From: an uncultured Nitrososphaerota archaeon
Lineage (GTDB): Archaea > Thermoproteota > Nitrososphaeria > Nitrososphaerales > Gagatemarchaeaceae
Assembly: GCA_963718895.1 (NCBI GenBank)
Contig: CAVRAG010000007.1
Coordinates: 288,001-352,000 of the forward strand
Reading direction: 5' to 3'
Length of the DNA: 64,000 bases
Below, one piece after another: positions 2,812-63,544 of the stretch. The notes beneath the pieces are model-generated. The model made no database searches. It saw only the letters and a program-made list of their open reading frames with translations, and was not told where the DNA came from. Numbering within the stretch: position 1 is the stretch's first letter; the number at the start of each line of letters is the position of its first letter. The position numbers and the translations under genes are program-made.

Positions 2812-3486
2812 TTGTTGAAACGCCGGATCCTCCTCATCAATTTCAAGAACTATAGCGAGATTCTCGGCGAGGGAGCGATGCGAATGGCCAGCGCCGCCGA
2901 GCAGGCCTGTGACGGGCTCGAGGTCGAGCTCATCCTCGCCCCTCCCACGCCGACGCTTGGCGTCGTCGCCGCAGGGACGACGGCGCGGGTATTCGGCCAG
3001 AGCGTGACCAACCAGCAGGAAGGTAAGAGCACCGGTGCGATCATCCCCGAGGCGCTGAAGGCCTCCGGGTGTTCAGGCTCGATCATCAACCACAGCGAGT
3101 CGCGTCTCCCCCTGGAGGTCGTTCGCGCTCTGATTCCCAGGATGAAGAGACTGGGACTGTCATCGTGTGTCTGCGGGGAGGACGCCGGCGAGGTCGCGAG
3201 GATGTCTGCTTTCGCCCCTGAGTACCTTGCTGTCGAGCCCCCGGAGCTGATAGGGAGCGGCATAGCCGTCTCCCAGGCCCGGCCGGAACTGCTGCGTGAT
3301 ACCGTCGCAACCGCTCGGGGCGCGGGCTACTCGGGTGGGCTCCTCTGCGGAGCCGGAATCGTCTCGAGCGAAGATGCACGCACGGCCATCAGGCTGGGGA
3401 TGGACGGAATCCTGGTCGCCAGCAGCGTCGTGAAGTCAAAGGACTGGCGGGCCAAGGTCAGGGAGCTCGCCGCCGCCCTCTCTTGA
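2812..3486 (+). CDS. tpiA: Triosephosphate isomerase (archaeal short type)
   Basis: INFKNY, INHSE, AVEPPELIGSG, LCGAGI motifs. Confidence 0.95.
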   Translation: MLKRRILLINFKNYSEILGEGAMRMASAAEQACDGLEVELILAPPTPTLGVVAAGTTARVFGQSVTNQQEGKSTGAIIPEALKASGCSGSIINHSESRLPLEVVRALIPRMKRLGLSSCVCGEDAGEVARMSAFAPEYLAVEPPELIGSGIAVSQARPELLRDTVATARGAGYSGGLLCGAGIVSSEDARTAIRLGMDGILVASSVVKSKDWRAKVRELAAALS

Positions 3487-3559
3487 CCCCCTTCTGCAAT
3501 CGCGGAACAACCGAGGCACGTTAGAAAGCCGTAAATAAAGTGCCAAAACCGGCCGGGTC

Positions 3560-4813
3560 ATGAGTAAGACCAACCAGAGTCCCTTTGAGAACGTCCTAGA
3601 GCAGCTCGACATCGCGGGAGAGTACCTGAAGCTCGAACCGGGCGTCAGAGACCTGCTCCGACAGCCTAAGCGGATAGTCACGGTCTCGCTTCCCGTGAAG
3701 ATGGATGACGGGAGCACCAACGTCTTCACGGGTCACAGGGTCCAGTACAACGACGCCAGGGGCCCGTTCAAGGGCGGAATCAGGTATCATCCTGGGGTCA
3801 CGCTCGACGAGGTGAAGGCGCTCTCGGCCTGGATGACCTGGAAGTGCAGCGTCGCTGACATACCATTCGGGGGCGCCAAGGGAGGGGTCGTCTGCGACCC
3901 GAAGAAGATGTCCCAGGGGGAGCTCGAGAGGCTAACGCGCAGGTACGCCGCCGCCATCTCCAACATCATCGGCCCTGACCAGGACATCCCGGCACCTGAC
4001 GTCTACACGAACTCGCAGGTCATGGCGTGGATACTCGACACCTACAGCCTCATCAAGGGGCATGCGGTACCGGGTGTCGTCACTGGGAAGCCTATCTCGC
4101 TGGGCGGCTCTCTGGGAAGGGACACCGCGACGGGCAGGGGTGCGGCCTTCTGCACGAGGGAGGCCGCCAAGGTCCTGAAGGTTCCTCTAAAGGGGGCGAC
4201 GGTCTCTGTGCAAGGCTACGGAAACGCAGGCTCGAACTACGCGGTCATACTCGAGGAGATGGGCGCGAAGCTGGTCGCGGCCAGCGACTCGCAGGGCGGG
4301 ATCTACAACAAGAAGGGGCTCGACGCAAAGAAGGTCCTGGCCTACAAGGAGAAGGGAGGCTCCGTCGTGGGGTATCCCGGCGCAGAACCGATCTCCAACG
4401 AGGAGCTGCTCCAGAGCGAGTGCGACGTCCTCTGCCCCGCGGCCCTCGAGAACTCGATAACCAAGGAGATAGCCAGGGGAGTGAAGGCGAAGATAATCGC
4501 CGAGTGCGCCAACGGGCCGACGACCCCCGAGGCCGACAGGGTCCTCGACCAGCAGGGTGTCTACCTCGTCCCGGACATCCTTGCGAACTCCGGAGGGGTG
4601 ATAGTGAGCTATCTTGAGTGGGTCCAGAACCTCGAGAGGCTCTACTGGACCGAGGACGAGGTGAACTCGCGGCTCGAGCACAAGATCACGGGCGCCTTCA
4701 GGGCGGTCCACCAGGAGGCCAAGAAGCACGGTGTCTCGATGCGGACCGGGGCCCTCATCGTCGGCGTGGGGAGGGTCGCAGAGGCGGTCAGGACCCTCGG
4801 GGTCTGGCCCTAG
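3560..4813 (+). CDS. gdhA: Glutamate dehydrogenase
   Basis: GPFKGGIRYHP, GGAKGG, DIPAPD, QGYGNAG, PDILANSGGV. Confidence 0.95.
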   Translation: MSKTNQSPFENVLEQLDIAGEYLKLEPGVRDLLRQPKRIVTVSLPVKMDDGSTNVFTGHRVQYNDARGPFKGGIRYHPGVTLDEVKALSAWMTWKCSVADIPFGGAKGGVVCDPKKMSQGELERLTRRYAAAISNIIGPDQDIPAPDVYTNSQVMAWILDTYSLIKGHAVPGVVTGKPISLGGSLGRDTATGRGAAFCTREAAKVLKVPLKGATVSVQGYGNAGSNYAVILEEMGAKLVAASDSQGGIYNKKGLDAKKVLAYKEKGGSVVGYPGAEPISNEELLQSECDVLCPAALENSITKEIARGVKAKIIAECANGPTTPEADRVLDQQGVYLVPDILANSGGVIVSYLEWVQNLERLYWTEDEVNSRLEHKITGAFRAVHQEAKKHGVSMRTGALIVGVGRVAEAVRTLGVWP

Positions 4814-15825: not shown

Positions 15826-15918
15826 TGGCGGGCCCGATGGGATTTGAACCCACGGTATCTGAGAGTTTCTCTTCAGCTTCGGAGGCTGACGCCCTAATCC
15901 GTACTAGGCTACGGGCCC
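15826..15918 (-). tRNA. tRNA-Arg(CCG) with encoded CCA and a 14-nt intron (15857-15870) at position 45/46
   Basis: GGGCCCG acceptor; anticodon arm TCAGC-CTCCGAA-GCTGA; T arm GTGGG-TTCAAAT-CCCAT; 19-nt variable region folds as a BHB. Confidence 0.92.
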
Positions 15919-62737: not shown

Positions 62738-63300
62738 AGCGCCGAACGTGCGGCGTGTGCCAGGAGCTTCGCAAGCCTCACCGGTTCTGGGACGCCGCCC
62801 TGGAGCGTGAACGACTCGATCACCCTTCTGGCGTCGGGCTCGGAGATCGAGGTCAGCCGTGCGTAGACGCTCTTTCCGGTCCCCAGCTGCATGCGGGTAC
62901 GATCTCCGAGCATCCTGTATCGTCGGACCTTGCCCTCGGGGTCCTCGAACTGCGCTCGGATCGAATCCTCGATTCCGGCTGATTCCCTGTAGGTGAGACA
63001 TATGACCGGCCGACCCGTCTTCTCCGACAAGGCGTCGAGGTCCACTATGTTGTAGTGGCTGATTATGCAGCCCGAGAGCATTACCACGTTCACGTCCTCT
63101 CTACCGAGGCTCCGGTGCATCCCGATGAGCGAGGAGGTCGCGTCGTCCCCTCCCACCCTCGCCCTCCCGAAACAGATGCCGTCCACGACGAGGTCGGACC
63201 TCATCACCACGCCGCCCAGCACGGAGAACGAGTCGCCCCTGCGGAAGCTCTCCGAGATGCCCAGGACCCTTATCGCCCGCTTGTTCGGGTGGACCCTCAT
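62722..63300 (-). CDS. DUF99 / endonuclease V-like protein
   Basis: RVLGISESF, VGGDDAT, YNIVDL, GVPEPVRLA. Confidence 0.85.
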   Translation of the reverse strand: MRVHPNKRAIRVLGISESFRRGDSFSVLGGVVMRSDLVVDGICFGRARVGGDDATSSLIGMHRSLGREDVNVVMLSGCIISHYNIVDLDALSEKTGRPVICLTYRESAGIEDSIRAQFEDPEGKVRRYRMLGDRTRMQLGTGKSVYARLTSISEPDARRVIESFTLQGGVPEPVRLAKLLAHAARSALQTVA

Positions 63301-63386
63301 GGGTGTCGTTTCCGGAGCCTCGCTTAATACTCTTGGCGATGCTCCTGCACGCCGACCGGACTAGGACCCGGGCAAACTAGTCGAAA

Positions 63387-63452
63387 GGAGGCTCAGACAA
63401 ATGCCTTCTCTTCATACAGAAATTTTCGTAACTCTGATTCATCACTGCCCCC
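63387..63452 (-). ncRNA. Box C/D methylation guide sRNA, probably targeting 23S rRNA
   Basis: GGGGGC-A-GTGATGA(C)-ATCAGAGTTACG-AAAATTTCTGT-ATGAAGA(C')-GAAGGCATTTGT-CTGA(D)-GCCTCC; terminal stem; TTTATA box about 24 nt upstream. Confidence 0.82.
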
Positions 63453-63544
63453 AAGTCCCACGGGCCGTCTTGGAGTATAAAGAGGTATTCGGGCCGTGCG
63501 CCAAGAAGCGGCTCGGTTTTGCGTCCCCGGACCGCGAAGGCCCC

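Follow-up and report, generated by a model that had tools for sequence, protein, structure and literature searches.

What do the 66 nt on the minus strand at positions 63452-63387 of the window encode, the window being the whole stretch of 64,000 nt of DNA analysed here? The analysis points very strongly to an archaeal box C/D sRNA gene of the ordinary kind, with its own TATA promoter and a predicted role in guiding methylation of A1938 in 23S rRNA. The whole gene, its boxes, the linker and the promoter element were read from the sequence, and the 3' half of the terminal stem is supported by covariation:

63476-63481, minus strand: TATA box TTTATA, 23 nt ahead of the first stem base.
63452-63387, minus strand: whole box C/D sRNA gene, 66 nt.
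63447-63452, minus strand: 5' half of the terminal stem, GGGGGC, whose partner is 63392-63387.
Between GGGGGC and box C, minus strand: a single A, also read from the sequence.
63439-63445, minus strand: box C, GTGATGA; its T, G, A and G are invariant in an alignment of 78 rows.
63427-63438, minus strand: D' guide, ATCAGAGTTACG, 12 nt; bases 2-11 pair with 23S GTAACTCTGA.
63423-63426, minus strand: canonical place of box D', occupied by a degenerate AAAA.
63422-63416, minus strand: linker, TTTCTGT.
63409-63415, minus strand: box C', ATGAAGA; its TGA is at least 90% conserved in the 78-row alignment.
63397-63408, minus strand: D guide, GAAGGCATTTGT, 12 nt; bases 2-11 pair with 23S CAAATGCCTT.
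63393-63396, minus strand: box D, CTGA.
63387-63392, minus strand: 3' half of the terminal stem, GCCTCC.

Apart from the internal D' box, the sequence features of archaeal box C/D sRNAs are present, with a RUGAUGA-type box C near the 5' end, a CUGA box D near the 3' end, a 12-nt spacer from C' to D, a terminal stem of 6 bp closing the C/D kink-turn, and a total length of 66 nt, within the size of about 50-70 nt of archaeal C/D sRNAs. Box C' (ATGAAGA) shows one departure from RUGAUGA. The stem and boxes C, C' and D had been placed on the minus strand in a preliminary description of this DNA, and all were recovered at exactly those coordinates. Fold prediction was unremarkable (z = -1.87), the MFE structure pairing guide portions internally, and no clear oligo-T terminator was found in the sequence 3' of the 3' stem half. 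A strict architecture scan of the 3.13-Mb genome, which required boxes C and C', a 12-nt spacer, CTGA and a stem with 5 or more of its 6 pairs, returned two occurrences, and none in the reversed genome. The second locus, on contig 8 near 1198100 (plus strand), has a D guide without a 9-bp rRNA match; judged by this strict scan, canonical C/D sRNAs would be very few in the genome.

The genome (3.13 Mb, 11 contigs, 80.5% complete) contains one archaeal 23S gene of 4002 nt, on which each guide finds ten contiguous Watson-Crick pairs: TCAGAGTTAC of the D' guide with GTAACTCTGA at gene positions 2058-2067, and AAGGCATTTG of the D guide with CAAATGCCTT at positions 2386-2395. Both complementarities had been proposed from conserved LSU sequence, and both are perfect over 10 bp on the host's own gene. 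In a gap-free exon alignment to the E. coli 23S record, whose own coordinates run +2, the D' guide target corresponds to E. coli 1910-1919, the H69 loop plus its closing G, and the D guide target to 1935-1944, as originally assigned; the numbering was anchored on the psi1911/1915/1917 names used in PMC2794176. The fifth base upstream of box D is a U that pairs with A1938, so the count from box D agrees with the earlier D+5 prediction, and we are confident in A1938 as the predicted target of the D guide. On the D' side, a 12-nt spacer leads to A1913. The two targets had also been called adjacent, which holds for the mature rRNA, with 15 nt between them, and fails for the gene, where they lie 328 nt apart rather than 25 because a putative intron sits between them.

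Matches of this quality are infrequent by chance. Ten Watson-Crick pairs on the host's 23S gene were reached by 1.4% of 200,000 random genomic 12-mers, and by 106/20,000 and 128/20,000 shuffles of the two guides, which gives a chance of about 0.5-1.4% per guide; it is far less likely that both guides would hit sites 15 nt apart in the mature RNA than that one of them would match. Across the genome the two 10-mers occur at 4 and 5 places, compared with ~6 expected by chance: in the sRNA gene itself, in the 23S gene and at scattered positions. The 16S region gave no contiguous match of 7 or more bases, and the best of 42 tRNAs reached 7. A second D-guide site on the 23S gene was rejected, being a 10-step run that needs G-U pairs and lies inside a second, 617-nt insertion. 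Both target 10-mers were present in 30 of 30 23S loci from relatives, the host's own included.

The proposed mechanism would start with transcription of a 66-nt sRNA from its own TATA promoter; the 6 sequencing runs listed for the locus, from 3 studies, include none recorded as RNA. With the 6-bp terminal stem closing them, boxes C and D would fold into a kink-turn bound by L7Ae, Nop5 and fibrillarin, and pairing of the D guide with 23S 1935-1944 would bring fibrillarin to the target nucleotide that faces the guide's fifth base counted upstream from box D, with 2'-O-methyl-A1938 as the predicted product. The second guide would pair with the H69 loop at 1910-1919. Genes for the protein machinery were found in the genome: fibrillarin (PF01269, 253 bits) and Nop5 (PF01798, 226 bits) are encoded by adjacent genes on contig 8, and an L7Ae-family gene (PF01248, 100 bits) is located on contig 7.

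BLAST searches with a 121-nt query revealed clear homologs in relatives at the level of genus, family and order. In these relatives the guides, boxes and TATA box were retained and the flanks were divergent, and CAGAGTTA was present in every relative recovered. An exact-pattern scan for the two guides, with one genome per species, gave at least 120 contigs, in which the guide cores are invariant by construction, so that their conservation is free of bias only in the BLAST-found relatives. Among the matches listed, 113 had box C two bases upstream together with a terminal stem; the other 7 were bare chance matches (bacteria, one Promethearchaeota contig and one of unseen title). The titled true matches among those listed (n = 73) belonged to Nitrosopumilaceae, Nitrososphaeraceae, Nitrosotalea, Nitrosocosmicus, Caldarchaeales/Aigarchaeota, Conexivisphaera and unclassified archaea, and the host is therefore most likely a member of Nitrososphaeria. 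Of 401 genomes sampled from the phylum, 105 contain the exact two-guide pattern and none its reverse. By family, it was found in 61/61 genomes of one and in 18/27 and 12/16 of others, and in many families in none (e.g. 0/27, 0/24 and 0/23), in a scan that can overlook diverged copies.

Of 116 distinct copies, 78 were aligned; the remaining 38 were near-duplicates, mostly of the Nitrosopumilaceae type. In these 78 homologs the terminal stem showed changes on both sides at all six of its pairs, with 92.1% of cells paired, compared with 27-55% when the partner was slid, and none of 500 shuffles reached the score. Box D reads CTGA in 62 of the 78 homologs and CCGA, CGGA or CAGA in the rest. A covariance model built from the alignment matched 50 of 61 genomes of the order, the host's own included, and 23 of 24 high-quality ones, some 23 of the genomes tested having themselves supplied rows to the model. 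A single match was obtained in 48 of the 50 genomes and two matches in the other 2; the host genome has exactly one. The conservation of guides and boxes on which the preliminary description had staked its reading is thus borne out by the BLAST relatives, the covarying stem and the model matches.

The D' side of the sRNA requires separate consideration. Neither CUGA nor NNGA stands about 12 nt after box C in the window, where AAAA is found instead; GA occurs only at 9 nt, and the sole GA nearby lies within ACGA at 63429-63426. Such a box is present in 53 of the 78 homologs, from other lineages, as CTGA at 12 nt (n = 9), CTGA at 13 nt (n = 25) or NNGA at 12-13 nt (n = 19). The remaining 25 copies have neither, and include the window, all 20 aligned BLAST-found relatives of its family and other rows; they read AAAA, AATA, ACAA, ACTT, GATA and the like at the canonical place, with GA only 9-11 nt past box C and with the D' guide intact. 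Box D' had already been described as degenerate and its H69 target as ambiguous, a caution justified by the AAAA of the window and by the 25 of 78 copies without GA at that place. Since the D' guide is intact despite the eroded box, the H69 half is under selection for pairing; methylation in H69 is uncertain because the box is eroded in the window genome and its family. The site of such methylation is likewise uncertain, being predicted at A1913 by homology, and at 1915 or 1916 if the shifted GA is used.

In relatives with a CTGA D' box and a 12-nt spacer, A1913 would be methylated. Homologs of the Nitrosopumilaceae type have a canonical CTGA D' box after a spacer of 13 nt, not 12, which would place the predicted H69 target at A1912 instead of A1913.

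A shifted D' element offers another explanation of the D' half, which would then be a fully active methylation guide directed to C1916 or U1915 and not to A1913. The candidates are ACGA after a 9-nt spacer in the window and, in some congeneric relatives, CGGA after a spacer of 10 nt. Two observations are consistent with this: the final ACG of the guide is conserved in the window's family despite a G that has no pairing partner in the target, and 20 of the 25 homologs without GA at 12-13 nt have one at 9-11 nt. However, efficient archaeal methylation needs a spacing of about 12 nt, and spacers of 9-10 nt are shorter than this; moreover, the upstream duplex would shrink to 8 bp, and the box stays at 12-13 nt in other lineages. 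An active shifted element is regarded as unlikely. With the sRNA taken as an ordinary guide for A1938, the second half in the window's family would most likely still bind H69, and could give inefficient methylation there or act mainly as a tether holding the H69 loop beside the H70/71 strand during domain IV folding.

Two insertions were found in the host 23S gene, the first of them between the targets of the two guides:

23S gene positions 2074-2376 (contig 8 locus 3127-3429), minus strand: insertion of 303 nt, between the two sRNA targets.
23S gene positions 2949-3565 (contig 8 locus 1938-2554), minus strand: second insertion, 617 nt, near E. coli ~2500 by simple offset.

The 303-nt insertion is a putative group I-like intron. 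It is located at E. coli 1923, on the 3' strand of the H69 stem, and matches the group I model RF00028 with 30.6 bits (E 3.7e-6), short of the gathering score of 50. With its borders shifted by 1 nt, a U precedes the 5' splice site and a G is the last intron base, and the exon end GACTCTC pairs with intron GGGAGTC in a P1-like helix with a U-G wobble pair. LSU/1923 is listed as an IB4 group I intron site of Thaumarchaeota and Aigarchaeota (Nawrocki et al. 2018, PMC6125680). A bulge-helix-bulge reading was also considered, and a 4-bp central helix with 3-nt bulges could not be placed by hand at the junctions; the group I reading fits better. The 617-nt insertion, also found in one relative of the same genus, matches the group I model weakly and in part (25.6 bits, E 2e-4) and contains no convincing ORF; the ORFs listed as overlapping it are of 85-118 aa.

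The sRNA targets bracket the 303-nt putative intron, one ending 4-5 nt before the 5' splice site and the other beginning 10-11 nt past the 3' splice site. Of the 30 23S loci, 16 have the target starts 25 nt apart and the other 14 have them separated by 301-779 nt, and the insert in the 1923 region is accordingly polymorphic, with 276-754 extra nt in those 14 of 30 loci. It is present in 12 of 18 loci of the window's family (the host's own included) versus 2 of 12 in the other families of the order, counts in which kin are non-independent. With the covariance model the sRNA was detected in all 16 relatives that lack the insert and in 11 of the 13 that carry one; the two insert-bearing genomes with no match are 90% and 84% complete. 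The sRNA is present in relatives that have no insert and is therefore independent of the intron.

An elaboration of the A1938 guide, to which we give a low probability, is that in the window's family the D' kink-loop was lost and the H69 guide remained under selection, leaving a methylation guide for one site that doubles as a methylation-independent clamp coupled to self-splicing. The clamp would join the exon flanks of the intron that splits H69, or the H69 loop and the H70/71 strand in intron-free relatives. A chaperone role of dual-guide sRNAs has long been proposed, and the clamp, if real, would be a natural example of it, tied to the removal of a self-splicing intron. The combination of an eroded D' box, a kept guide and a polymorphic insert could in any case serve as a natural series on the guide as a tether and on the order of methylation and splicing.

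It is very unlikely that the sRNA acts mainly as an exon tether, pairing both flanks of the putative group I intron and aiding its folding or the ligation of the exons. The bracketing of the intron by the targets would suit such a role, as would the higher frequency of the insert in the same family that has the eroded D' box, but this association may reflect lineage only, among kin that are non-independent, and three intron-free members of the family also have the eroded box. Furthermore, the sRNA is retained in insert-free and insert-bearing relatives alike, and the 2-nt overlap of the guide with the putative P1 helix would lead to competition rather than help. A methylation guide for A1938 remains the preferred reading.

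Promoter position was examined in 130 distinct copies with at least 60 nt of upstream sequence. A strict TTWAWA hexamer was found in 78 of them, starting 27-30 nt before the stem in 68 of the 78; the TTTATA of the window starts 29 nt before it. Several of the 52 copies with no strict hexamer show one-off variants at the same place, and the bases between the TATA box and the stem diverge across relatives. An own promoter had been proposed from a TTTATA about 24 nt upstream; the distance proved to be 23 nt, and is fixed in relatives. The neighbouring features are as follows:

63958-63545, minus strand: small Mrr_cat-domain gene, the upstream-side neighbour of the sRNA.
63324-63329, minus strand: TATTAA, 23 nt before the Endo_dU ATG at 63300.
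63300-62722, minus strand: Endo_dU/DUF99 gene, starting 86 nt downstream of the sRNA on the same strand.

The spacing of 23 nt between TATTAA and the ATG equals that between the TATA box of the sRNA and its stem. The TATTAA suggests that the Endo_dU mRNA is leaderless and transcribed from its own promoter.

The neighbours named in the preliminary description recur only in part. Of 29 other loci searched, 17 have an Endo_dU gene within 1.5 kb, upstream or downstream side alike, and 18 have an Mrr-like gene. Neither neighbour was found in two order-level relatives that retain the sRNA, and a third sRNA-bearing relative gave no tblastn match to either within 1.5 kb. The sRNA is kept at such loci and is therefore an independent gene.

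These loci bear on the idea that the element is a cis-acting kink-turn leader of the Endo_dU (DUF99) mRNA, a regulator that binds L7Ae and not a trans-acting guide. The same-strand Endo_dU start 86 nt downstream and the frequency of this gene nearby, either side counted, give the idea its appeal. Nevertheless, the sRNA is retained at loci with no Endo_dU gene within 1.5 kb, its guides have been conserved as rRNA-pairing sequences, and Endo_dU has its own TATTAA ahead of the ATG, which makes a cis-acting leader highly improbable. An accidental grouping of short motifs between genes, to which the shortness of the boxes and the lack of an Rfam family at threshold might lend some colour, is refuted by the stem covariation, the phylum-wide pattern with zero reversed controls, the covariance-model matches in 50 of 61 genomes, the architecture scan, the fixed promoter position and the match of both guides to sites 15 nt apart in mature rRNA, and its probability is negligible.

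Published sRNAs place the A1938 guide in context. Helices 68, 69 and 71 are given as archaeal methylation hotspots by Dennis et al. (2015, PMC4644070), where a dense cluster of methylation targets is placed near E. coli A1912, equivalent to alignment position A2178. Because these hotspots are known, the sRNA of the window is less unusual than first judged. An offset of 266 converts the alignment of Dennis et al. to E. coli numbering, with A2204 equal to A1938 and A2179 equal to A1913. In supplementary file 1 of that paper, Sac-sR125 of Sulfolobus acidocaldarius (D guide AAAGGCATTTGT) and Iho-sR109 of Ignicoccus hospitalis (GAAGGCATTTGT followed by CTGA) both have A2204 and G2172 as predicted targets. 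Like the RNA of the window, both are dual-guide archaeal C/D sRNAs with a D guide predicted at A1938 and the other guide also on H69; the D guide 12-mer and box D of Iho-sR109 are identical to those of the window. Both were identified by RNA-seq. As described there, they differ from the window's sRNA in having a canonical CTGA D' box, hyperthermophilic crenarchaeal hosts and a D' guide that pairs with the 5' strand of the H69 stem (G2172, E. coli 1906) and not with the loop.

The H69-loop guide has its own counterpart in the RNA-seq-derived lists of the same supplementary file, in Sac-sR113 of Sulfolobus acidocaldarius (D guide CTCAGAGTTACT and CTGA, with a 12-nt spacer), whose H69-loop guide core is the same as that of the window's D' guide. 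Unlike in the window, this guide is carried in the D position, and its partner guide is listed with no predicted target. The target of Sac-sR113 is printed there as '23S A21779', an apparent typing slip; given that A2178 is E. coli A1912, it was read as A2179, apparently E. coli A1913. The file also gives U2183 as the predicted target of Neq-sR22. The suggestion that the guide is possibly ancient thus gains support from the same guide sequences in published crenarchaeal sRNAs.

Comparison with yeast relied on the equivalence of psi2258 and E. coli 1915 (PMC2794176, Table 1) together with the gap-free E. coli alignment. Yeast Am2256 is reported as guided by snR63 and Am2280/Am2281 by snR13 (PMC5199042). 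By this offset Am2256 corresponds to 1913 and Am2280/Am2281 to 1937/1938, so that the proposed link between A1938 and an snR13-guided site is upheld with Am2281 as the counterpart; by the same mapping the predicted H69 site is matched in eukaryotes too, A1913 being equivalent to Am2256. The rRNA nucleotides are thus the same by offset, but in yeast two separate, longer nucleolar snoRNAs are used, while one 66-nt sRNA covers both sites here. A1913 and A1938, which belong to intersubunit bridge B2a and its neighbourhood, would accordingly be targets of crenarchaeal sRNAs, of yeast snR63 and snR13 and of the sRNA described here, and their being common to crenarchaeal sRNAs and yeast adds weight to the view that both ribose methylations belong to the oldest directed by guide RNAs.

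No published description of this sRNA was found in full-text searches whose matches were judged by title and abstract. Rfam searches of the window at gathering thresholds gave three tRNAs and no C/D family reaching its cut-off. At an E-value threshold, 11 of 11 matches in a 501-nt stretch and 27 of 28 weak matches in a 91-nt stretch were C/D box families on the minus strand, all below gathering, so that the Rfam search named in the preliminary description recovered the class of RNA and none of its families at gathering score. The top models were SNORD53_SNORD92 (23.2 bits, gathering 46) and Pyrococcus sR11 (21.7 bits, gathering 39), with which the boxes and overall length align; the guides differ and the scores are sub-gathering, which places the window's RNA outside both families. 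With no Rfam 15 family above gathering score, the sRNA would represent a new, widely conserved family. A partial weak match to SNORD15 (15.3 bits, E 0.092) spans the D guide and box D; SNORD15 is the vertebrate counterpart of snR13.

For Nitrososphaeria (Thaumarchaeota/Aigarchaeota), this adds a near-universal, single-copy and well-supported C/D sRNA family, and the 78-row alignment and covariance model could serve for annotation of the gene across hundreds of genomes. Elsewhere in the window, the tRNA match at 15829-15918 (minus strand) spans 90 nt, compared with the 71 positions of the model, and this tRNA may hold an intron or a long variable arm.
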